Positions 1-17,738 of a stretch of 64,000 bases of DNA are shown here, piece by piece. Location of the stretch: positions 32,001 to 96,000 of the IMG/VR virus record IMGVR_UViG_3300050821_003619. One strand, written 5' to 3'. Position 1 is the stretch's first letter; each line of letters starts with the position of its first letter. A model generated the notes under the pieces. The model saw only the letters and a program-made list of their open reading frames with translations. It did not search any database and was not told the DNA's origin. This DNA comes from a virus. The position numbers and the translations under genes were made by a program.

Positions 1-184
1 AACGTTTTGAGAGAGTTAAGAAGGCCTGCAAGCAAGCTGTGTACGCATGGGAGCAATGGGGCGCATGGCCCGACAATTGGCGTGTATGGGAATCTGCTCT
101 TGTAGATGCTAGCAATGCATACACGCGTGAGACTGGCGTATACGTTAACACTCCGTTATTAAGCAGATTGGAGGGTTTACTCTA

Positions 185-379
185 ATGCAGAAGTGCACAA
201 TCTGTAAGCAAGATATTGTCCTCGTGCCTAGTGCTGCTGAACGTGCCAAGCGTTACGGTGGCAAGGCTAGCGACTACACTAAGCTATTCACAGAGCATGC
301 GGCATGCGTGCTCAAGAAGCGTAATGATGAAACCCGTGCATTGATCGAGCGCACCAAAGGAGAATACGTCAATGGCTAA
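185..379 (+). CDS. hypothetical early protein
   Basis: ORF with GGAGG upstream and a CxxC near the N-terminus. Confidence 0.6.
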   Translation: MQKCTICKQDIVLVPSAAERAKRYGGKASDYTKLFTEHAACVLKKRNDETRALIERTKGEYVNG

Positions 380-719
380 ATTGAAAGCTACACCAAAGAA
401 CTATGCCGAAGCTGCTGAGGTTCTCGCAGGATGTGACAGCATTCGCCTAGGCAATAACACGTACCTTGAACGCGATATCATGAACAATATTACTGTGCGT
501 CTGCACAGTACAGACATTGTGGTGTTTCACAAAGAAGGCAAGACCACTCTGCACACTGGTGGATATCGTACGGTCACTACAAAAGAGAGATTAAACCAGT
601 TCATCAAGGGCCGTGTATACCAGAAGGATCATAACTGGTATTATGTTGTGAACCGTGGTGAGCTTGGCATCGATTGGAGCAAGCCTATTGACTTTGAAGA
701 AGGCATGGAGGTGCAATAG
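372..719 (+). CDS. conserved phage hypothetical protein
   Basis: AGGAG RBS; LHxTxI...TGGYxTxTTKxRLN...VYQK..WY pattern I recognise from phage early genes. Confidence 0.65.
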   Translation: MAKLKATPKNYAEAAEVLAGCDSIRLGNNTYLERDIMNNITVRLHSTDIVVFHKEGKTTLHTGGYRTVTTKERLNQFIKGRVYQKDHNWYYVVNRGELGIDWSKPIDFEEGMEVQ

Positions 720-723
720 CGCC

Positions 724-930
724 ATGCACAAGTCTGCATATGACTTTCGCATCGAAGACCACGGCACGATCTTCCTGCTATGCCCAATAACGCCCAAGGC
801 AGAGGCGTGGATTAGTGAGCATATACCCGAGGACGCGCAGCGTATGGGTACGGCAGTGGCAGTAGAGCACAGATATATCGAGGACATCGCTGCCGGTATC
901 CTTGAGGATGGCTTAAACTTCTATCTGTAG
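724..930 (+). CDS. hypothetical protein
   Basis: ATG at 724 after GGAGG; in frame with track ORF 655..930. Confidence 0.6.
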   Translation: MHKSAYDFRIEDHGTIFLLCPITPKAEAWISEHIPEDAQRMGTAVAVEHRYIEDIAAGILEDGLNFYL

Positions 931-1028
931 GAGGCACGTATGCACCACGCTCTAGCCTTATTGCAGCTATGGGTTCTGCTGTGCATAGCTGTTAGTCAGT
1001 TCGTGCAAACCACTACTGAGGTGAACTA

Positions 1029-1304
1029 ATGACGCCGGAAATGTTCGCAATGAATCTTGTAGGTACATCCAATACAGTCACAGCGCAAACCATGCGGGGC
1101 ATTGTTGTGGATGCCATCAAGCAATGGGACGCACAGAAAGCCGCAAACTGGCATGGCTGCTGTAATGCTGCTGGACGCTTGGCCGACTTGGTTTGCAATA
1201 TGTATCATCCCAAGGATGCAAAGGCACGCAAGACTTGGCCCACTGCTACATGGGCAGAGATTATTGCTAGTGAACTTGGCATAGAAGTACCGGAGACAGA
1301 CTAA
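1029..1304 (+). CDS. hypothetical protein
   Basis: GAGGTG RBS; co-oriented ORF. Confidence 0.6.
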   Translation: MTPEMFAMNLVGTSNTVTAQTMRGIVVDAIKQWDAQKAANWHGCCNAAGRLADLVCNMYHPKDAKARKTWPTATWAEIIASELGIEVPETD

Positions 1305-1469
1305 TGACTAGGTATGACGTGGCAAGATACGAGAATGCCCTGCAAGATATCCTTGACCAATTCATGGGTATAGCAGAGCAAGACCTGACTGTACTGGAGA
1401 AGCGTATTCGGCGCATCGCTGAAAGCACTCTTAGTTCTATCACTAAAGCACAAAGGAGCAGACAATAGC

Positions 1470-1724
1470 ATGCCCACCACGATTAACATCAAGCCTGATT
1501 ACAAGGCCATCCATGCTCGATTCAAAGAGGATGCTGTGCGAACCCTTGAAAGCTTTGCAAGCAAGGGCAGCAAGACTCTCACGCGTTCTGAGGTATACAG
1601 CTTTGTGGCAAGCCTCAGAGTCGCATTGGATACTATCACTGATGTAAGTGAACTTGAACAGTTGCGTTATGATTACGCCGAAGCCGCCAACAAAGTGTTC
1701 GAACGAGTACAGGAGGAGTACTAA
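1470..1724 (+). CDS. hypothetical protein
   Basis: AAGGAG RBS; co-oriented ORF. Confidence 0.6.
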   Translation: MPTTINIKPDYKAIHARFKEDAVRTLESFASKGSKTLTRSEVYSFVASLRVALDTITDVSELEQLRYDYAEAANKVFERVQEEY

Positions 1725-2069
1725 TGACTAATCGCGCACGTAAAGCCGCACGCAAACGCTTCCGTAAACTGGCACGCAATGAATATCCACTGACGCCTGA
1801 AGTCCTAGCAGTGTATTGAGTAATGGGGACTACCTGAGTGTGCAAACACAAAAAGGCTTCCCTAAAGAGTATCCCGAGCATAGACCGCATTACGAATAGG
1901 AGATTACGATGTGGATGAGCCAGTTCAATGATTTCGTACACGGGGACCTTGAACAGTTGCATGCGCTGCTTGAAGAAGAGTGTACGTTAGATGAACTTCG
2001 CGCAGCCCTGCAGAACGTTGTGTTCAAGCTGTTGTATCTCACAAAACAACTCAAGAGTAAGTAGGTAGG

Positions 2070-2160
2070 ACGCAAGGATTAAACGGTGCCTTGCGTGAGT
2101 CATCGGGCCGCACTAAGTGCGCTAGGTTGGGCCAACGTCCGATGACTCATGGAGGGCACC
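2070..2160 (+). promoter_or_regulatory. structured leader element, copy A (alternative anti-SD and anti-anti-SD stems)
   Basis: ACGCAAGG/CCTTGCGT stem (2070-2096) competes with GGTGCCTT/AGGGCACC pairing over the RBS; 11-bp TGAGTCATCGG/CCGATGACTCA stem with two small inner hairpins. Confidence 0.65.
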
Positions 2161-2352
2161 ATGCTTAATCAAGCTTATGACGTTGTTGGCAAAATCATGG
2201 AACACGAGGATGGAGTGCTTGACCAAGAAGAGACATTAGAGCTATTCCAGCATCTGGTAGACACCGGCATGGCTTGGCAGCTACAGGGTTCTTACGGTCG
2301 TATTGCTGTGGCTCTGATTCGTGCTGGTTATATCAAGCGAGGTACACGCTAA
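2161..2352 (+). CDS. conserved phage hypothetical protein
   Basis: GGAGG RBS then ATG 2161; LFQxLVDTGxAWxLQGxYGR motif. Confidence 0.7.
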   Translation: MLNQAYDVVGKIMEHEDGVLDQEETLELFQHLVDTGMAWQLQGSYGRIAVALIRAGYIKRGTR

Positions 2353-2440
2353 TGATATGGAGAATAGTGTGCGCGTTGTGGATATACGAGTTCTTCGTAA
2401 AACCCTTGTTCGAACGCTATAAACAGGAGAACAATACAAA

Positions 2441-2698
2441 ATGACAATCAAAGAAGCTGCACAGATGGCACTCGATGTTCAGGACGCTTGTAACCTATCT
2501 GGCGTGGTGCATAGCTTTGCTGAGGTAGTCACTGCTTTGCGTAACTCTCCTGAGTGTACAGGTACAGACTGGGTGAATGAGCACCCTATCGTTACTCTGT
2601 TCCTTGACAAGCTATCTTCGTTGAACAACTACACCAGCACGCTAGGCTACATAGCAGCGTACGAAAAAGTTGAGAAGCTGGCTAAAGGAGAACAATAA
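2441..2698 (+). CDS. hypothetical protein
   Basis: AGGAG RBS; AxxALxVQDACNLSGVVHSF motif. Confidence 0.65.
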   Translation: MTIKEAAQMALDVQDACNLSGVVHSFAEVVTALRNSPECTGTDWVNEHPIVTLFLDKLSSLNNYTSTLGYIAAYEKVEKLAKGEQ

Positions 2699-2699
2699 A

Positions 2700-3047
2700 A
2701 TGGGCAGGCCTCGCGGACTACGCAAGGGACCAGATGGTAAGTGGTATATGCCACAAGGAGGAAACAATGCATCGAAAGATAGCAATACTGGCAATGACAC
2801 TGTGCATAGGGTGGCTGCTGCTCCAGTTGTTAATACTGATCCTCAGCCTAGTGTACGGAGTAAGCGTACAGTAAGCATGGATTGGCAGCGCAATGATATA
2901 GTGACTGCCGAGGATGGTGCCGAGCGTAAAACAGCCTTGGTGCTGGGATGGAATGGCAGCAAGATCGTGGTGCAACTGTTGGATGGTGTAACACGCTTGA
3001 CGTTGGATGAGTCTCGCGTGCATTCTATCGGTGAGGTGGGAGTGTGA
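2700..3047 (+). CDS. hypothetical protein (possibly two genes)
   Basis: AAGGAG RBS then ATG 2700; low-complexity middle overlaps another ORF. Confidence 0.45.
   Translation: MGRPRGLRKGPDGKWYMPQGGNNASKDSNTGNDTVHRVAAAPVVNTDPQPSVRSKRTVSMDWQRNDIVTAEDGAERKTALVLGWNGSKIVVQLLDGVTRLTLDESRVHSIGEVGV
2767..2874 (+). CDS. 35-aa single-pass membrane peptide, overprinted
   Basis: AAGGAGG RBS; MHRKIAILAMTLCIGWLLLQLLILILSLVYGVSVQ. Confidence 0.5.
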   Translation: MHRKIAILAMTLCIGWLLLQLLILILSLVYGVSVQ

Positions 3048-3132
3048 CTGAGAAGCTAGCTATACGAGTGCTGTTCACATTCAACGTATTACTTGCTGTA
3101 TACATCTGCGTAATTAACTTGTGGAGGTACTA

Positions 3133-3417
3133 ATGGAATATAAGGACATGTACATGGAGCCCAGAGATCGATACGCGTTGCAGCTTGCACGTCAAAACTC
3201 TGGCTTGCCATGCTCAGATTGCGGTTCACATAAAGGTCACTTCTACTTCTGCACAGCATTGACTGGGTATTGGAACGCTGAGGTTTCACAGTCAGAAGAA
3301 GTAAGCATGGAAGATGTGCTTGGCAAGGCTAAGCCATACATGCAAGATGAGAACGCTGTGCCTGAGTTTGATGTGGCAGATACACGCTGGCTGAAAGCTA
3401 TGGGAGTCCTACTGTGA
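3133..3417 (+). CDS. hypothetical Zn-knuckle protein
   Basis: GGAGG RBS; CxxCxxxxxHxxxC. Confidence 0.55.
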   Translation: MEYKDMYMEPRDRYALQLARQNSGLPCSDCGSHKGHFYFCTALTGYWNAEVSQSEEVSMEDVLGKAKPYMQDENAVPEFDVADTRWLKAMGVLL

Positions 3418-3809
3418 GAAAGAAGGAAGCCCGTAAAGGACTGTGCTTCTATTGTGGCAAGCCAGCCAACACTGCAGATCATGTTATCCCACGAAGTATT
3501 GTAGGTTTCATGGAAGTAGAAGATACCTATCAAAACTATGTGGGAGCATGCCACTACTGCAACACAGACAAAGCCCAGATGACTATGGAAGAGTACAGAA
3601 CCTACAGAACGGTTCGTCATTTGTTAGCTATGTCCCCTGCAGTCTGCGTATCTAATATAGTTAGCCTTGTGATTGACCATAAGTTCTACGGGGAAATGCA
3701 CCCAGAGACACAAGGCAAGCAATACGAAACGTTGGTAAAGGAACATCTTGTAGTGGCACAACAGCGACCATCATCTTTGCAGTTCATTAAAAGGGGAAAC
3801 AACACTTAA
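3414..3809 (+). CDS. HNH endonuclease
   Basis: CFYCG...TADHVIPRS...NYVGACHYCNxxK. Confidence 0.85.
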   Translation: MRKKEARKGLCFYCGKPANTADHVIPRSIVGFMEVEDTYQNYVGACHYCNTDKAQMTMEEYRTYRTVRHLLAMSPAVCVSNIVSLVIDHKFYGEMHPETQGKQYETLVKEHLVVAQQRPSSLQFIKRGNNT

Positions 3810-3811
3810 AC

Positions 3812-4711
3812 ATGAAGCGCACACTTCTTCTACTCAGCTTCGTCTTTGCTCTATTCACTCTGCCTGCTTCAGCTTGGAACTGCCCTACCGGTCAGATACG
3901 ACAGCAAGCACCAGCAGGCACACCGACCACCACGCCTTACTATGACGTGGTAGAAGGGATAGCATTTATTTGCGTACCAGCGACACCGATAACTCCAACA
4001 CCGAAAGACCCAAACTCGTCCGCAAGTTCAAACTCGAATGCGGCTGCATCGTCAAACAGTACAGCGACGGCAGTTTCGAACACATCCTCTATCCAAAGCC
4101 AAGGGCAGAAGCAGAGCCAAGGCCAGAACCAAACAGCTAACGGAGGGAACGCTACAGCAAGCAATAGTAATGCTAACAACGGTAATAACCTAAGCACTGC
4201 ATATAGCAGCACATACAATCAAGTGCGACAGGCACCTATGGCGTATGCTCCTGAGGTATTTAGTACGGCTGCATGCCGCGTGGGAGCTTCGGCAGGCGTA
4301 TCTGCTCCTATCGGTGGCATTAGTTTAGGTGGATCAAAGAAGGACAAGGACTGTGAGCGTGCTATCCTTGCCAGTCAATTCATTGCCCGAGGCAACTTGG
4401 TTGCTGGGTGCAAACTGCTCATGCACGTAGGTGTAGTGAAGGAGGCTCTTTCATTCGATGAGTGTATGATTGCTGTGCAGTCTAAGCCCGTGGTTATCGA
4501 GGCTCCAGTTGCACCTGTTATGCCTACAATCACTGTGAATGTGCCTGCACCAGTCATTACGCCTGTAGTGACCGTGGATAGGCAGGTAGTGGCTGAGAAG
4601 CCTACAGTGGTTACAGTTATAGTTCCCAAACCAAAGAAGCACGTATCGCATACGTGCCCGGTGACCGTTGAGCATGGAGTGAAAGTCATTCACGAAAAAG
4701 GAGAGAAGTAA
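3812..4711 (+). CDS. secreted protein with Ser/Asn/Gln-rich linker and Cys-paired domain
   Basis: Sec signal ending ASA; CRVGASAGV...GISLGG...DxDCER; Pro/Val-rich tail. Confidence 0.7.
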   Translation: MKRTLLLLSFVFALFTLPASAWNCPTGQIRQQAPAGTPTTTPYYDVVEGIAFICVPATPITPTPKDPNSSASSNSNAAASSNSTATAVSNTSSIQSQGQKQSQGQNQTANGGNATASNSNANNGNNLSTAYSSTYNQVRQAPMAYAPEVFSTAACRVGASAGVSAPIGGISLGGSKKDKDCERAILASQFIARGNLVAGCKLLMHVGVVKEALSFDECMIAVQSKPVVIEAPVAPVMPTITVNVPAPVITPVVTVDRQVVAEKPTVVTVIVPKPKKHVSHTCPVTVEHGVKVIHEKGEK

Positions 4712-4713
4712 AC

Positions 4714-5166
4714 ATGTGCCTAAACAACATTACGAAACGATATGAACCGGCTGATCCAAAGGTTCGCAAAGCATGGAAGTATGTTAAAGTAGAAAGTGAT
4801 GGGACATTCGTGTCTATATTTCAAGGTTACTTTTATAGCACAGAGTGGAAAAAGTCGTATTGCAATTACACGATTAGTTGTACTAACGATAAGGCTAAAT
4901 CACACCATATGAGAGAGCAGTATATTCCCGGATTTCATGTGTTTCCTACTAGAGAGGAAGCACGTAAAGCAAAGAGTCTTATCGATAACAACGATGGTGG
5001 TTCCTTTTCTCATGCAGAAGGTATAAGGCTGGCACAGGTTGAAGTGCGAGGTGTTACTGTGGAAGGCACGGACGCAACCTCTAGTGAAAGTTCATACCTT
5101 GATGCCAATATTAAAACCTTGGTTGCTAAAGAGATGCGTATCATCAAGATTGTGAAGAAAGGATAA
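4714..5166 (+). CDS. hypothetical protein
   Basis: AGGAG RBS; YxPGFHVF motif. Confidence 0.6.
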   Translation: MCLNNITKRYEPADPKVRKAWKYVKVESDGTFVSIFQGYFYSTEWKKSYCNYTISCTNDKAKSHHMREQYIPGFHVFPTREEARKAKSLIDNNDGGSFSHAEGIRLAQVEVRGVTVEGTDATSSESSYLDANIKTLVAKEMRIIKIVKKG

Positions 5167-5169
5167 CTA

Positions 5170-5730
5170 ATGAAAAAGCTTAAAAAGAATACAATCAAAT
5201 TGCTGCGTAAGATTCAACAGCAGATCATGGCAGAACCCAAGCGGATAGATATGCATGATTTTGTTGAGGTGTTCGCACCTGAAGTCAAAATCAACTTGCA
5301 AGGGACCGAAGGTTCTCCCGAAGGTTTGCCTATTCCACCTTGTGGGACTCAGGCATGCGTTGCAGGTTGGGCTTGCCTGATTGGTGACCCCAATCTTGAA
5401 AAAGAATTAAAAAGAGTTCTAGTTGAAGATTCTATAACTTTCGTTAATGAACGTCACTTGGCCCTAGAGGAAACCATCCAAGACAAAGCTGTAAAGATTT
5501 TGGGAATCACTGAAGCACAAGGTGTACGCTTGTTCTTCTTCAAGGACTGGGGAAACTTCGAGGAAGACGAGTTTGGATACACGTTACACGATAAGAACTT
5601 TGAGCCCATTGAAGCAGGATGGCCCGAGAAGTTTTCGAAGCGTTACGAAAAATCTAAGACAGCTAAAGGCCGCGCCAAAGCAACATTTGATCGTATCGAG
5701 CACTTTATCGCTACGAATGGCGCTGAGTAA
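5170..5730 (+). CDS. hypothetical protein
   Basis: CGTQACVAGWA motif common in phage early proteins. Confidence 0.65.
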   Translation: MKKLKKNTIKLLRKIQQQIMAEPKRIDMHDFVEVFAPEVKINLQGTEGSPEGLPIPPCGTQACVAGWACLIGDPNLEKELKRVLVEDSITFVNERHLALEETIQDKAVKILGITEAQGVRLFFFKDWGNFEEDEFGYTLHDKNFEPIEAGWPEKFSKRYEKSKTAKGRAKATFDRIEHFIATNGAE

Positions 5731-5736
5731 TTACTA

Positions 5737-5840
5737 GCGCAGGATGTGGTGTCCTGCGTACGTCACAGCGAATAAGTATGCTTGCCGACCTAGGCGGCGA
5801 TACCGAGCAGAAGAAGTAACTGTGACGCATGGAGGACACC
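5737..5840 (+). promoter_or_regulatory. structured leader element, copy B; possible internal promoter
   Basis: GCGCAGGA/TCCTGCGT stem competes with GGTGTCCT/AGGACACC; CGTCACAG/CTGTGACG stem; CTGCGT-17-TATGCT inside. Confidence 0.65.
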
Positions 5841-5841
5841 A

Positions 5842-6131
5842 ATGAGACCACGCTACAAACCGCAGCCCGTCGATATTGCATGGGCCAGACAAGTGCTGGC
5901 TACTGTAGCCGATGGCGGGACAGTTGTTTACCCGAGAACCAATATGCACTATATGGTGTCTCACTCACCTTTAACAAAATGATCTTGCTCAACACAAACA
6001 TACTCGATGAACGCTTTGACAGCTTCGTAATACACTGTCAGACCATCGATACGTTTAAGGTCCTAGGCTACAAGGTGCTACCTGACCTTGATGATGACAC
6101 TAACGGAGAAGGAGGGCTGAAGACTCAATGA
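5842..6131 (+). pseudogene. probable frameshifted gene
   Basis: RBS and ATG 5842 give 46 aa ending at TGA 5980-5982; a plausible continuation (NKMILL...FKVLGYKV) lies in the -1 frame. Confidence 0.5.
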
Positions 6132-6370
6132 CTAAATATAGATCGTTAACAGAGATAGCCGTTGAGATACTGAACGACTGGAAGGAACCATACTTCGGTG
6201 CCGTGCCGTATATCTTAGCTATGATCCAATTAGATAGTATCGATGAGAACTTCGGCGCTGACTCTGGCTTAAGCATAGTGCTTTATTTTCTTTCCAACGC
6301 TAACACTTGGAAGGGTGAGACAGCACGTAGGATCAAAGCCGAGCTACGGGACATGGTGAAGGGTAAGTGA
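6128..6370 (+). CDS. conserved phage hypothetical protein
   Basis: YFGAVPY..AM..L.SI....GADS..SIVLYFLSNA.TW.GE.ARRIK.EL. Confidence 0.75.
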   Translation: MTKYRSLTEIAVEILNDWKEPYFGAVPYILAMIQLDSIDENFGADSGLSIVLYFLSNANTWKGETARRIKAELRDMVKGK

Positions 6371-6395
6371 CTATGGTACCTAATCCTAATGTCTA

Positions 6396-6451
6396 GTAAC
6401 GTTACGTCACCTGTTACCGGGGTCATGTTACGTTACCATGACCGGCGTTAC
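6396..6451. repeat. cluster of GTTAC-like pentamers (candidate operator)
   Basis: GTAAC, GTTAC, GTCAC, GTTAC, GTCAT, GTTAC, GTTAC, GTTAC within 56 bp, abutting a -35 box. Confidence 0.6.
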
Positions 6452-6480
6452 TTGCGTGGCTCTGCCTCTGCCTGTAGAAT
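6452..6480 (+). promoter_or_regulatory. sigma70-like promoter
   Basis: TTGCGT-17 bp-TAGAAT. Confidence 0.6.
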
Positions 6481-6523
6481 GTGTATGTAGGCTGAGGTTA
6501 AGGCCACACAAGGAGAGTCACAC

Positions 6524-6706
6524 ATGTTGCTAGACGTTGAACAGATAACGGTTTCGTTGGTGGGAGACACTTCGCGCACGCTGAACACGTACGCTCACGG
6601 CACCAACCAAACGTTGCAGGATGTGGTTAACGAGGCTCTGGCTGATTGGGCCGACACCGTTGCTGCGGCACGGCTGGAGTCCTTCAGCATACACCGTATT
6701 AAATAA
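6524..6706 (+). CDS. ribbon-helix-helix (CopG/Arc-like) regulator
   Basis: ITVSL strand followed by two helices ending LQDVVNEALADW; AAGGAG RBS. Confidence 0.55.
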   Translation: MLLDVEQITVSLVGDTSRTLNTYAHGTNQTLQDVVNEALADWADTVAAARLESFSIHRIK

Positions 6707-6777
6707 GTTAACATTCAGGTTCCGTGGTAGGTCCTGAATTTCTCCTATCTGATTGATTCTAAAGGTAACTTCTGTTG

Positions 6778-6806
6778 TTGACTTGGTAACCCATCCATGG
6801 TAGCAT
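6778..6806 (+). promoter_or_regulatory. sigma70-like promoter with extended -10
   Basis: TTGACT-17 bp-TAGCAT with TGn; GGTAAC at 6764 and 6785. Confidence 0.6.
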
Positions 6807-6857
6807 GGTCTTGTTGCTGGTACCGCCTAAGGTGCCATTGCACAAGGAGAAACTACC

Positions 6858-7673
6858 ATGCCGCGAGGTCAATACGTACGTAAGACTCGTATCCAACCCA
6901 CAGTTGTCGAGCAGCCAGTAGAAACTGATTTGCTGGTAGCTGATACCGATGACGTAAACGATCTAGTACCCGCTGAGGCATTCGTTAGTATGCCGGGGTG
7001 GGACAAACTAGATGAAACTGAACAGAGCACTGTGCTTTCTGAAGGTCATGGTCTAGCCCATGAGTTACTTGTTCATGGGACAAGCCGCATGGCGATTGGA
7101 GCACATCTCTACAAGCTTCGAAACGTGCTCACACCTCATGGTCTGTACGGTCGCTTCTTGAAGTATTTCCACTTCAGCAAGCGTACAGCAGACCGATATG
7201 TTGCAGGTTATGAGAACGCCAACAAGCTTTTGCCCGAGCCTATTGTGCGAGCAGCGATGGCACGAGGCATTAACATCATTGGAGACACAGCAATGAAGCC
7301 GCTAGGTATCTATACCGGTGCGGTTAAGAAGCTGCCGCCACCCAAGAACCCGGATACTGTCCAAGCCAATACGTGGTTGAATCAGATCGAGCAGGTACGC
7401 AAGGATGAGCGCCAAGCGGCACCTGCCGGGATCATATCTATAGAGCCTATCGATGCACAGATGGCCCTGAAGGAATGCTTCAGGTTCATCAACACTCGAT
7501 ACAAGAGGCTCCCCAACAACAGCAAGACGCGCAGTGCATTTGTGCGTAGCTTAGTTGGTATGATTCTGAGTGAGCTTGGGGTAGCTGGCCCACAGACCTT
7601 CACACCGACAGCGGTGCCTGAGGATTTCCGAGCGCAACGAGGCAGGCCTCGGGAGCAAGCAGCCATAGCCTAA
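6858..7673 (+). CDS. DUF3102-like DNA-binding protein
   Basis: IGxxLxxxRxxLxxHGxYxxFL...FSxRTAxRY. Confidence 0.6.
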   Translation: MPRGQYVRKTRIQPTVVEQPVETDLLVADTDDVNDLVPAEAFVSMPGWDKLDETEQSTVLSEGHGLAHELLVHGTSRMAIGAHLYKLRNVLTPHGLYGRFLKYFHFSKRTADRYVAGYENANKLLPEPIVRAAMARGINIIGDTAMKPLGIYTGAVKKLPPPKNPDTVQANTWLNQIEQVRKDERQAAPAGIISIEPIDAQMALKECFRFINTRYKRLPNNSKTRSAFVRSLVGMILSELGVAGPQTFTPTAVPEDFRAQRGRPREQAAIA

Positions 7674-7739
7674 TCTCTAAAGCCAAGTTGGAGGACTGCA
7701 ACCACAGTCCTCCTTTACTTGCGCCTGAAAGGAGAGCAT

Positions 7740-7922
7740 ATGTCGAAGGACGAAGTAGTCACTGCTGCTCAACTCTATGGTGAGCACCATGACAACTGTC
7801 CCATCTGCAAAAAGAACAGCATAAGTCTTTGCAAGGAAGGCCGTATACTCATGGAAAACTTCTATGCGACCTTGCAAAACACGCTGAATAAGGGTTCGCC
7901 CAGAAAGGAGAACCACAAATGA
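7740..7922 (+). CDS. small Cys/His protein
   Basis: AGGAG RBS; HxxxCxxC...LCxEG. Confidence 0.5.
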   Translation: MSKDEVVTAAQLYGEHHDNCPICKKNSISLCKEGRILMENFYATLQNTLNKGSPRKENHK

Positions 7923-8113
7923 ACATTCCTCCTCTGCCTAATGGAAAGGAGATCATCAAAAAGCGTATTCACAATTTGACAGGTACCATGACTAACATTC
8001 TCGGCTACCTTGAATTAGAAGAATACGAAAAGGTTGTCAAGTGGGTGAAAGAAGCCGTAAAGGAGCTTGACCAGTTAGCGAAGGCCATTGAAGTTCACAT
8101 CATCAAGCACTGA
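7919..8113 (+). CDS. stand-alone HisKA/Spo0B-helical-hairpin-like miniprotein
   Basis: RIHNLTGTMTNILGYLELEEYEKVVKWV resembles the H-box helix pattern HxLxxxLxxIxGYLEL. Confidence 0.45.
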   Translation: MNIPPLPNGKEIIKKRIHNLTGTMTNILGYLELEEYEKVVKWVKEAVKELDQLAKAIEVHIIKH

Positions 8114-8119
8114 AGGAGA

Positions 8120-8425
8120 CTTTCTGTGAACCCCAAGCACAGATTGACTGATTCATCAGTCTAACCTTGTATAGATGTTTATTAGCGATTCTGCTATACA
8201 AGGATTCCACCCCCGCTCAGAATCCTAACCATACCATTTGCCGAATGCAGACTACGGGCAAATGTTAATGGCTATATTCTCTGTAACCACACAGATGTCT
8301 GTTGAATTAAATAACCGCAGTAGAAAGTGGGCCATGTGGTAAGCAAAAGTAATTCCCAGTCAGTTCGTCTCGCATAGAGCGCGAGTTTGACCCTTTGGTT
8401 AGGCAATCAAACTCGCGCTTTATTG
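8120..8425 (+). ncRNA. candidate structured noncoding RNA
   Basis: at least six consecutive stems, ending in a 13-bp stem plus TTATT; no long ORF. Confidence 0.45.
8375..8424 (+). terminator. intrinsic terminator-like hairpin
   Basis: AGCGCGAGTTTGA/TCAAACTCGCGCT followed by TTATT. Confidence 0.55.
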
Positions 8426-8473
8426 TGTCTTGCGTACGGTATTGCTTCCCTCGTTGTTTCGTACGGAGGACAC
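8425..8473 (+). promoter_or_regulatory. structured leader element, copy C
   Basis: GTGTCTTGCGTACG...CGTACGGAGGACAC with the same G-G mismatch as copies A and B; covers the RBS of the 8480 gene. Confidence 0.6.
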
Positions 8474-8479
8474 TGAGTT

Positions 8480-8842
8480 ATGAAACATACGCCACAGTAT
8501 GTACACGATTATTACTTTACCAACATCAATCCTGAAACACTCAAAAAGAGAATCAAAAACGCACAACTAATACTCAAAGGTTTGAAGTTTGATGCCATTG
8601 CTTTCTCTGGCATGAGCGGGGCTCTGTTGGGTCCTCCATTGGCTCTCAAGATGGGCAAATCTTTGATTATGGTTAGAAAACCACACAGCGGTAGCCATTC
8701 CAGAAAGCGCGTAGAAGGAGACATGGCTGCTCATACGTATATCATCGTGGATGACTTTCAAGATACCGGCAAGACTGCACGCTACATTAAAGAATCAGTA
8801 GCTGAATTTTCATCTGAAGCAAAGCTGCTGGGAAGTATTTGA
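8480..8842 (+). CDS. type I phosphoribosyltransferase-like protein
   Basis: PRPP-binding motif IIVDDFQDTGKT; VRK motif. Confidence 0.8.
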   Translation: MKHTPQYVHDYYFTNINPETLKKRIKNAQLILKGLKFDAIAFSGMSGALLGPPLALKMGKSLIMVRKPHSGSHSRKRVEGDMAAHTYIIVDDFQDTGKTARYIKESVAEFSSEAKLLGSI

Positions 8843-8896
8843 AATGAATCGGATGCATCTGTATAGAGGTTCACCATTAAAGTTGTCGGAGGTAAA

Positions 8897-9310
8897 ATGA
8901 TCAATGAATCAGATGCTAGACGTACATGGAACGGCTGGACTGAAATCCAGCGACGGGCGTTTTTAGAAGGCTACGAATTCAACACCAGCATAGCGCGGTA
9001 TTCATGGCCTATGCTTCCCTACCCAGTTCAGCAGCTAATGATGCAGGATAAGCACTCTGTAACCCGTGGGCCGATCATCGGCAAATGCGCGAAGTGTGGC
9101 AACGTATACGCATTGGATACTGAGGAGATCGTATGCCCACAATGTGAATTCAAAGGTGTACTGTGGGCATATGAGGGTAACCCGGCTGACCCTGAGGATG
9201 AAACACTAGAGTACATGCGCGACCAGCTAGGTACACCAGAGCTTTCAGAAGGTGACAAACTAGATATAACCGAGCTTAAACGTATTTATGAATTAGAGGA
9301 CCCACGATGA
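8897..9310 (+). CDS. Zn-ribbon protein
   Basis: CxxC...CxxC. Confidence 0.6.
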   Translation: MINESDARRTWNGWTEIQRRAFLEGYEFNTSIARYSWPMLPYPVQQLMMQDKHSVTRGPIIGKCAKCGNVYALDTEEIVCPQCEFKGVLWAYEGNPADPEDETLEYMRDQLGTPELSEGDKLDITELKRIYELEDPR

Positions 9311-9395
9311 CACGAAGGAATGTGCATGTTTGGCTGTGGTGGTTAGGTAAATGCGTTTGCGGCAGATTCAATTGCAGAGAAAAAGGGAGGATCAA

Positions 9396-9779
9396 ATGAA
9401 ACTCGTTATTGACCGTAAAACATGGAGACGTGGCCCACAAGATGAGCAAATTAAGTTAGACGATCCTACAGCTTTGCTTTGCAAAGATGGGGCTAAATGT
9501 TGCTTGGGTTTCTATGCTCTTCAGTGCGGATTAACGAAAGAGCAAATATACGGCATAGGCGAACCTGGACAAATTCCTATGAACGAAGATGATGCAGATT
9601 CTTACTGGCTCAAATTGGTTAAATTCTATGATGATGATTATACTTCTGGTTTGGCTAACACTAGCCTAGCTGCTGAAGCTATGGACATCAACGATGATCC
9701 TAATCTCACAGAAGAAGAACGAGAACAAAAACTTATAAAGATATTCTCCAAGAAAGACATTGAGGTGAAATTCGTATGA
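9396..9779 (+). CDS. conserved phage hypothetical protein
   Basis: GGAGG RBS; IDRxxWxRG...CCLGF...IND. Confidence 0.65.
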   Translation: MKLVIDRKTWRRGPQDEQIKLDDPTALLCKDGAKCCLGFYALQCGLTKEQIYGIGEPGQIPMNEDDADSYWLKLVKFYDDDYTSGLANTSLAAEAMDINDDPNLTEEEREQKLIKIFSKKDIEVKFV

Positions 9780-9915
9780 AACCTGATGGAATCACAAAGA
9801 AGACCAAAGATAATTCTAAGAAGCGCCCATACGAACGCGAACAGTGGCAGAAGAAAAAGAGCGAGGGCCGTCCCAAGCAGCAATTCATTAATGGGCAGTG
9901 GGAGAAGATTCCACA

Positions 9916-10125
9916 ATGAGGTGGAGATGGCTAAAACAACTGGTCTGTCCGCATGAAGACGTAGCTATACGCACGGATGGATCGCGCCTATACGTTAGCT
10001 GTCTCAGGTGTGGCAAGCCGAGTCCCGGCATAACCACGGGGGGCTTCAAGTACGGCCACAAGGCAGTCAAAGACCGATCAATACTGGTAATGAAATCATT
10101 TAGACCTAGGAGAATTAAACGATGA
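9916..10125 (+). CDS. small Zn-binding protein
   Basis: CxH...CxxCG; ATGA overlap with an upstream 47-aa basic ORF (9776..9919). Confidence 0.5.
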   Translation: MRWRWLKQLVCPHEDVAIRTDGSRLYVSCLRCGKPSPGITTGGFKYGHKAVKDRSILVMKSFRPRRIKR

Positions 10126-16692: not shown

Positions 16693-16856
16693 TGCTCAAG
16701 TGGATTCGTAGTTTAGGATTCTGGGGCATGTTCGTTGGGGCAATGGGAGCGCTGAATGCTCTCATTCAGAATGACTGGGGGATCGTAGGGTTAGGTATTG
16801 TTTTCGTTTTGTTGTCCTACGGTTGGTACTGGTTATTCGGCAAGTTCACCACGTAA
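16692..16856 (+). CDS. two-TM membrane protein
   Basis: GGAGG RBS then GTG 16692; two hydrophobic segments. Confidence 0.55.
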   Translation: MLKWIRSLGFWGMFVGAMGALNALIQNDWGIVGLGIVFVLLSYGWYWLFGKFTT

Positions 16857-17250
16857 AGTTACGCACGTATGAGGTAATCGCAAAGCCTATCGGACACGGG
16901 TTCGACTCCCGTCGCCTCCACCAAGCTACTCACGATGAATACCGGCTGACCCCAGCGTCTAGCGCGGAATCACGGCTAGGCCCGAGACGAATGCATCGTT
17001 ATCGGGAAAGTCGAGGATAATTCTCGTCTGGGTGAGTAGCTTAATGGGGGCGTCACGGCTTCGACGGTGGGAACTGAGGGATTTACTGACGTGCCGTTAT
17101 CGTACGCCGTTCGTTATACGGAGTGCAAAAACACAAATGCTAAGACTAACAAGTCTCGCAAGGCCTATGGCATGTTCTTCGGTGGAAACACTGTTGGACA
17201 GCTTTCTGTAGCTGCCTAAAAGGGTGGGAGCCTCACAAGGGCTCCCTTCC
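16857..17250 (+). ncRNA. ssrA: circularly permuted (two-piece) tmRNA
   Basis: acceptor piece with T-arm GGTTCGACTCC ending CGCCTCC-A-CCA (16923); coding piece starts GGGGGCG (17046), giving a G3-U70 pair; helix 2 pairs across the pieces; tag frame 17139..17219 ends VAA-stop; hairpin 17226-17246. Confidence 0.92.
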
Positions 17251-17279
17251 GATATCCTCCCCAACAAACAGGAGAAACC

Positions 17280-17738
17280 ATGAAGAAGCTTTTCGCTGCT
17301 GTACTGATGCTGGCGTCAGCATTTGCTGCTGCCCAAACCACAAACAATTTTACTTTTGGTCCGCGCCCTACCATCACTAACATTGCTCCGATGACTTCGG
17401 TTAACGGTGTTTCAGTCGATCCTGCTACCAATAGCACTGTAGATTTTCAGACTTCGGACTTCAGCACTGCTCCGGGGTTCGCGTTGTATTTCCCTTACAG
17501 CATCGACGGTACCAGTGGTATTCTTGAAGGAGGAACGATTCAGTATGGTGTACGCGTTATTACCGGCGTGAACACTGCTACTCAGTCTGATACGTTCTCT
17601 TTCTTCGGTGGAGAATTTACCGGCACTGTAATTGAAACCTTCACCTTCGCTACGCAGCGTGTGTGCGGTGGTCGTAGTTGCCACAACGTGACGGTGTATA
17701 CCAGCACGGGTGGAACGGGAACGTTGACAAAGAACTAA
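17280..17738 (+). CDS. secreted Thr-rich beta protein
   Basis: AGGAG RBS; signal peptide ending AAA. Confidence 0.65.
   Translation: MKKLFAAVLMLASAFAAAQTTNNFTFGPRPTITNIAPMTSVNGVSVDPATNSTVDFQTSDFSTAPGFALYFPYSIDGTSGILEGGTIQYGVRVITGVNTATQSDTFSFFGGEFTGTVIETFTFATQRVCGGRSCHNVTVYTSTGGTGTLTKN

Follow-up and report, generated by a model that had tools for sequence, protein, structure and literature searches.

The locus and its copies of the element

The window analysed here is a stretch of 64,000 nucleotides (nt), bases 32001–96000 of the complete 109,250-bp IMG/VR phage record IMGVR_UViG_3300050821_003619, which has terminal repeats and stems from an uncultured phage of soil type. Genes of the plus strand run from ~30.9 kb to 67 kb, with small open reading frames (ORFs) first and replication genes after them, while the structural genes occupy the minus strand. 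In front of three of the small genes the window carries copies of one leader element, in which a long RNA helix buries the Shine-Dalgarno (SD) sequence GGAGG next to the start codon, and in most copies an upstream arm can form a second helix that excludes the first. We conclude with good confidence that this element is a translational control RNA that sequesters the SD and contains a competing helix. Its arms, from 5' to 3', are U (a decoy), L (the anti-SD arm), a variable upper hairpin or insert, and R (the SD arm, with GGAGG), so that the locked helix is L:R and the competing one U:L.

All three window copies are on the plus strand. Copy A (2070–2163) starts with the U arm ACGCAAGG at 2070–2077, 5 nt after a TAG stop (2062–2064) that ends a 51-amino-acid (aa) ORF. 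This decoy pairs with CCTTGCGT of the anti-SD arm L, GGTGCCTTGCGT (2085–2096), in which G2093 is the 5' partner of a G·G mismatch. The outermost 12 nt at each end of the variable insert (2097–2148) lengthen the helix to a total span of 24 bp, and the R arm ATGGAGGGCACC (2149–2160), with the SD inside, is followed directly by the ATG at 2161 of a 63-aa gene (2161–2352; DUF7417/phrog_3908). Copy B (5737–5844) has the same order: a TAA stop (5728–5730) ending a 186-aa ORF, then 6 nt further on the U arm GCGCAGGA (5737–5744), which differs from that of copy A by two compensatory changes, the L arm GGTGTCCTGCGT (5748–5759), an insert (5760–5828) with one additional A·C mismatch in the upper stem, and the SD-containing R arm ATGGAGGACACC (5829–5840). 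The 46-aa gene behind it (5842–5982, ATG 5842) heads a chain of three small ORFs (5842–5982, 5979–6131 and 6128–6370) joined by ATGA stop/start overlaps. A listed 100-aa ORF starting at 5829 reads through the R arm of copy B and is probably an artefact.

Copy C (8424–8482) is the shortest. It consists of the L arm TGTGTCTTGCGT (8424–8435), a short insert of about 26–27 nt (8436–8462) and the R arm ACGGAGGACACT (8463–8474), again with the SD inside, before a 120-aa, phosphoribosyltransferase-like gene (8480–8842, ATG 8480). It has no U arm; in that place a 17-bp terminator-like hairpin (8374–8423) lies directly against it. This hairpin is GC-rich with a U-rich 3' side, is preceded by 260 nt of non-coding DNA, and has a 5' arm, GCGCGAG, that resembles the U arm of the other copies.

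The preliminary description of this DNA, made from the letters alone, had reported these three copies with their SD-burying stem, the stop codons just before A and B, and an upstream arm in both with two compensatory changes, and the features listed above bear it out. The 11-mer GTGYCYTGCGT has exactly three matches in the window, every one on the plus strand, and in the entire 109-kb genome four matches on the plus strand, none on the minus strand and none in a backwards-read control. The long hairpins are the minimum free energy RNA folds of the three window copies (z-scores −5.1, −3.8 and −2.7), with GGAGG on the 3' strand.

Two more copies, Z (genome 31586–31730) and Y (genome 30872–30962, a register variant), lie just left of the window, making five in this genome. 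The 102-nt insert of copy Z (L001:1513–1614, genome 31611–31712) contains a 7-bp acceptor-like stem, GGCCCAT/ATGGGCC, to which a T-arm with the loop TTCGACT is joined directly. At normal thresholds the insert is not called as a tRNA by either ARAGORN or Rfam. An acceptor/T-arm minihelix is the classic minimal substrate of RNase P, and copy Z might perhaps be opened by tRNA-processing enzymes.

Further members of the family

By primase/helicase, the nearest cultured relatives of the phage are the Tunturiibacter phages Tunturi_3 and Tunturi_4 from Finnish soil (45% and 42% identity); relatives at 57–75% identity are present in IMG/VR. Ten further members of the family were found outside the window's genome by a pairing scan, a pattern scan and an architecture scan. 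They come from four related IMG/VR phages (D2 and D in G001, E in G003 with an identical sequence in G007, F in G004, and H in G005), from four metagenome contigs with one member each (L191, L193, L196 and L200), and from the cultured Tunturi_3, where the copy fills the 93-nt gap between gp101 and gp100 and the annotated start of gp100 is its ATG; this junction is on the minus strand of PP885686.1, at about 69,650–69,775. The family thus totals 15 members in 9 records.

Two strict scans, one for a helix of at least 16–17 bp that contains a single mismatch at most and ends within 9 nt upstream of an SD-led start, the other anchored on the G·G mismatch beside the SD, were both specific, returning the known members and a few marginal matches over ~0.9 Mb on both strands. 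By these scans G002, G006 and Tunturi_4 have no copy. A looser scan for 14 paired positions of 16 was noisy, yet brought out F, H, Y and D2. The U-L-R pattern gave four true new members among 15 metagenome matches; ten other metagenome matches and two extra IMG/VR matches were GC-rich coding DNA with no upper stems. A strict sequence pattern had a single, chance match in a coding region, and among the matches listed in IMG/VR for the loose pattern TGCGT..AYGGAGGRCAC there were chance ones. A general three-part scan was discarded, being equally frequent in shuffled DNA, and protein searches with the 299-aa and 77-aa neighbours led only to one unrelated and one already known locus. A covariance-model search (model R1) recovered only core members, missing the register variant Y/D2 and Tunturi_3. 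There was no Rfam match at E≤1 in window positions 1–10000 or in the flank carrying copy Z, and the element region had no megablast match among GenBank phages.

One locus resembling the element was rejected as a member: in G005 (L177:12183–12318) a perfect 16-bp inverted repeat, TCTGCTCTACTCTCTT/AGGAGAGTAGAGCAGA, surrounds ~103 nt and ends at a start codon, but it has no G·G mismatch and appears on the other strand too. A TTATAAT box resembling a −10 element lies ~45 nt before the U arm of D2 (L171:16150–16200, in G001), so that D2 and Y may form part of the leader at the 5' end of the first early transcript.

The locked helix

All 15 members share the anti-SD arm L, the GGAGG arm R and an upper stem of unrelated sequence, and with the alignment anchored on the mismatch, G stands opposite G beside the SD in every one of them. 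The helix ends 0–6 nt before the ATG, and the mismatch lies 7–11 bp above the base of the helix. In the 13 core members, 98.4% of the 19 flanking pairs are paired and 15 of the 19 have changed on both sides. The covariation of L:R is 0.885, as against 0.287 in shuffles, and none of 1000 shuffles reaches it; slid registers are only 37–49% paired. The lower stem varies between phages while its pairing is kept (GTGY/RCAC, GACA/TGTC, ATGC/GCAT, and CTAAGC/GCTTAG in Y), and the C-G/U-A swap and U-G/C-G variation previously noticed among the window copies, here at offsets −4 and −2, recur in our alignment, as does the constancy of the mismatch. Further homologues and covariation, whose absence would have spoken against the original proposal, were both found.

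These alignments are small, and pairing was among the criteria by which several members were found, so the shuffle tests overstate the independence of the lower stem. Those criteria did not extend to the U arm, to the upper stems or to the inner pairs of the metagenome members.

The upper stem varies in sequence. Its strands are 29% identical pairwise, which is near random and agrees with the earlier view that the enclosed sequences are unrelated. The inserts range from 26 to 102 nt, and yet the helix spans 20–24 bp, mismatch included, in 11 of the 15 members; the exceptions named are B (13+1+8), C (15) and D2 (32). In all 15 members the sense strand gives a more stable fold than its complement (mean −45.6 versus −34.6 kcal/mol), which argues that the structure belongs to the mRNA.

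The invariance of the G·G mismatch and its neighbours in all 15 members could mean that a phage or host RNA-binding protein reads the lower stem together with the mismatch, either as a repressor clamp or as a helicase or activator that opens the helix. The near identity of lower-stem sequences among copies within one genome would also fit such an operator. We nevertheless think this improbable: across phages the lower stem changes freely in sequence as long as pairing is kept, the SD and its complements account for the sole invariant letters (R has GGAGG, L has C.TGC and U has GCA.G), full closure of the helix requires no protein, and we found no candidate protein.

The inserts bear on another possibility, modelled on the T4 genes e, soc, 49 and I-TevI, in which early read-through transcripts would be silent and a later promoter within the insert would yield translated RNAs that lack L. 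Internal late promoters that bypass SD-sequestering hairpins are established in T4 (PMC3014915), but a motif search found nothing common to the inserts, and that of copy C, at 26–27 nt, is too short for a promoter. A scan for sigma-70 promoters and terminators gave nothing consistent at the copies and no sigma-70-like site inside any window copy, other promoter types being possible. We therefore give this scheme very little credence.

The competing helix

U:L pairing of 7–11 bp is clear in 12 of the 15 members, weaker in Y and Tunturi_3, and missing from C. It includes the mismatch G of L, which is paired to a C in U. Over the seven alignable core copies 98.2% of positions are paired, and four of the eight pairs have changed on both sides; compensatory changes thus keep both of two mutually exclusive helices, L:R and U:L, across the 9 records. 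As U was not used to find D, E, F and H, its presence in those four is independent support. U looks like R except that a C takes the place of one G, a difference that would allow it to bind L perfectly without itself being an SD.

The stop codon of an upstream ORF lies 4–10 nt before U in Z, A, B, D, F and H, and that of gp101 lies 7 nt before L in Tunturi_3. This gives seven of the 15 members with a stop 4–10 nt before U or L, the check having covered all but the four metagenome copies; Y, D2, E and C are preceded by non-coding DNA.

If the SD is constrained to be open, all copies with a U arm fold best into U:L plus the upper hairpin. This open fold is 7.6–15.3 kcal/mol above the locked one, corresponding to a probability of the open state of 1e-6 to 1e-11. 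Such a preference for the locked form makes an equilibrium switch impossible, and with it an RNA thermometer or the expression platform of an equilibrium riboswitch. Of the translational switch that was originally proposed, the conserved sense-strand structure burying the SD therefore stands, while a reversible two-state device does not. Given the dominance of the locked state, opening needs cleavage, kinetics or a factor, and translation of the genes behind the element probably depends on a prior step of RNA cutting or of timing.

Kinetics alone would suffice if the element were a delayed-folding timer of the kind found in the MS2 maturation gene. U:L would form first during transcription and hold the anti-SD, so that the SD emerges free; ribosomes would load only on nascent or young transcripts until R displaces U by branch migration, shutting the gene off permanently after few initiations per mRNA. 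The parts of the element correspond one to one with the MS2 scheme (PMC4615214), the closed state dominates at equilibrium, the U:L helix covaries, and U:L comes out best among the folds with the SD forced open. A timer, however, leaves a helix of about two turns with unrelated upper stems unexplained, and copy C lacks the arm on which it would run. The open-to-closed barriers estimated by findpath lie between 4 and 16 kcal/mol, mostly 4–8 with a median near 6.5, and would suggest sub-second traps, but these estimates are crude, unreliable and too scattered to decide the kinetics. In sum we consider a timer, the chief rival to the cleavage model described below, possible, with more doubt than belief.

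Downstream genes and modularity

The genes behind the element encode proteins of 19–120 aa that are unrelated, save for the orthologous pair behind Y and D2. Pfam and PHROGs showed no common function among them; they comprise DUF7417, a phosphoribosyltransferase-like protein, a Kyano_Gp96-like protein and unknowns. The suggestion that the element coordinates several genes has no support as it was worded. Other relatives have orthologues of the genes that follow A and D, and these lack the element. The metagenome contigs L193 (minus strand) and L200 are 73% identical in 553 nt of upstream sequence that ends 4 nt after the L arm, and beyond this breakpoint both the upper stem and the gene differ.

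All of this could be expected if the repeats acted primarily in DNA, as junctions for cassette exchange like the PeSLs of T4-type phages (PMC2839356, PMC4122927) or integron attC sites, with the RNA structure incidental. In that case unrelated downstream genes, gene families with and without the element, and a homology breakpoint at the L arm would all follow. What such a reading does not explain is the retention of two RNA helices by compensatory changes, the dependence of these helices on G·U pairs and their strand asymmetry in 15 of 15, and the fixed geometry of SD and start codon; moreover, the genome has no PF00589 match, that is, no tyrosine recombinase. We consider a primarily DNA-level element very unlikely, and the single-stranded DNA cassette-junction hairpin once offered as an alternative is not supported as a mechanism on the same grounds. 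Recombination at the repeats is better viewed as a side effect: since the L193/L200 homology breaks off at the L arm, the repeats probably serve secondarily as recombination junctions in the manner of PeSLs, with one clear case.

Elsewhere in the genome, a single array of 26 tRNA genes lies upstream of the window (genome 12571–19460, minus strand), and ARAGORN called a permuted tmRNA inside the window (~16831–17310), which together make an unusually rich RNA repertoire for a phage.

How the element may be opened

A double-strand-specific enzyme needs a two-turn helix; a mere SD clamp does not. The building of a two-turn helix of constant length from unrelated sequences is why our preference, a tentative one, is for opening by RNase III-type cleavage, after which U would capture L. 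The RNase III-type site had been named among the alternatives in the preliminary description, and the constant helix length has strengthened its case. The enzyme requires a double-stranded helix of about 20–22 bp, or two turns, and the span of 20–24 bp in 11 of the 15 members agrees with this. No RNase III gene was found in the phage, so the host enzyme would act.

In the proposed sequence of events, a host double-strand endonuclease of the RNase III type would cut the two-turn helix, after which nothing but a short duplex would join L and R, by then parts of two separate RNAs. U would then capture L as a hairpin at the new 3' end of the upstream RNA. This U:L hairpin would stabilise the upstream message, block re-annealing and leave the SD arm single-stranded, and translation of the downstream gene would be turned on irreversibly.

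Several points weigh against cleavage of this kind. A two-turn helix is necessary for RNase III and not sufficient, and in copies B (13+8 bp, with a second mismatch) and C (15 bp) the helix is less long or has more interruptions. Acidobacteriota are suggested as hosts only by the 45% identical primase in the Tunturi phages. The role of U after cleavage is a proposal, a kinetic model accounts for U at least as naturally, and copy C is entirely without it.

The nuclease-dependent opening and the junction role can be joined in a broader and considerably more speculative proposal, which we rate as unlikely to hold in full: an ON switch that locks itself, is triggered by a nuclease and serves as a cassette junction as well, with a processing signal of its own in each cassette. 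That signal may be the two-turn RNase III helix in most copies and the acceptor/T-arm minihelix in Z. Cleavage may split L from R and U may then clamp L, making activation irreversible, while the shared U-L and R sequences may permit swaps of small early genes with control retained. If true, this would be a modular, "plug-and-play" form of post-transcriptional control not described for DNA phages.

Should our inference of a translational control RNA hold, one RNA module that can be reused would govern the changing set of small early genes in a clade of large soil phages, genes of a type among which host takeover and anti-defence are frequent functions, and the element would be a compact design found in nature for switching translation irreversibly. 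It is a clean new candidate RNA family by virtue of its two covarying helices that exclude each other, its fixed two-turn length and its invariant mismatch, and the copy between gp101 and gp100 of the cultured Tunturi_3 opens the competing mechanisms to direct bench tests.

Comparison with known systems

The early RNase III sites of T7 (R0.3 to R1.3) are intercistronic hairpins on one long early transcript; after cleavage the upstream RNA ends in a 3' hairpin, and downstream translation can be improved. The present element is similar in that several like hairpins of about two turns have an internal irregularity and would stand between early cistrons, seven copies having a stop 4–10 nt before U or L. 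It differs from the T7 sites in having the SD in the lower stem, a dedicated competing arm U and upper stems unrelated in sequence; there is no sequence similarity, and cleavage of the present element is a prediction.

The cIII mRNA of lambda adopts two alternative conformations of similar energy, one of them with the SD exposed, and RNase III is involved in the choice between them. Alternative conformations of which one exposes the SD are common to both systems. In lambda, however, there is a single site with nearly equal states, in contrast to the gap of 8–15 kcal/mol here.

Integron attC sites and other single-stranded DNA recombination sites, which have a cognate tyrosine recombinase and strand-symmetric DNA pairing, do not match the element, given the lack of a PF00589 match in the genome, the reliance of the pairing on G·U and the sense-strand bias in 15 of 15. 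PeSLs are composites of promoter and terminator (PMC2839356, PMC4122927). They share with our element the repetition of intergenic motifs bordering variable small early genes, together with one homology breakpoint at the motif, but the present element contains the SD and has no evident promoter.

Repeated motifs that include an SD and stand just before the starts of unrelated genes are also known from Cluster K mycobacteriophages, in the form of the SAS with its 13-bp consensus GGGATAGGAGCCC (PMC3203893). Some SAS are accompanied by ESAS, inverted repeats of 17 bp that are wholly upstream of the SAS and 4–13 bp apart, and the function of both is presumed to be translational (PMC3203893). The inverted repeat of our element instead includes the SD, encloses 26–102 nt and is joined by a third, competing arm; with consensus and geometry both different, membership in the SAS/ESAS group is ruled out.

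In T4, inhibitory helices at the translation initiation regions of e, soc, 49 and I-TevI (PMC3014915) likewise hide the SD. There a late promoter within the hairpin allows the helix to be bypassed; no such promoter is evident in the present element, and the T4 cases have neither a repeated module nor a decoy arm.

Lastly, in the 5' untranslated region of the MS2/Levivirus maturation gene, an upstream complement pairs with the SD over a long distance, and a metastable hairpin contains that complement (PMC4615214). The same three traits, an SD paired with an upstream complement in the stable fold, a competing metastable hairpin and a dominant closed state, are found here. Unlike in MS2, they occur in a DNA phage, in several copies before unrelated genes, and with a two-turn helix and a variable insert; Rfam shows no homology to the Levivirus 5' untranslated region family at E≤1. 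The element is thus an RNA family absent from Rfam that belongs to a known regulatory kind, the SD-sequestering leaders of phages.

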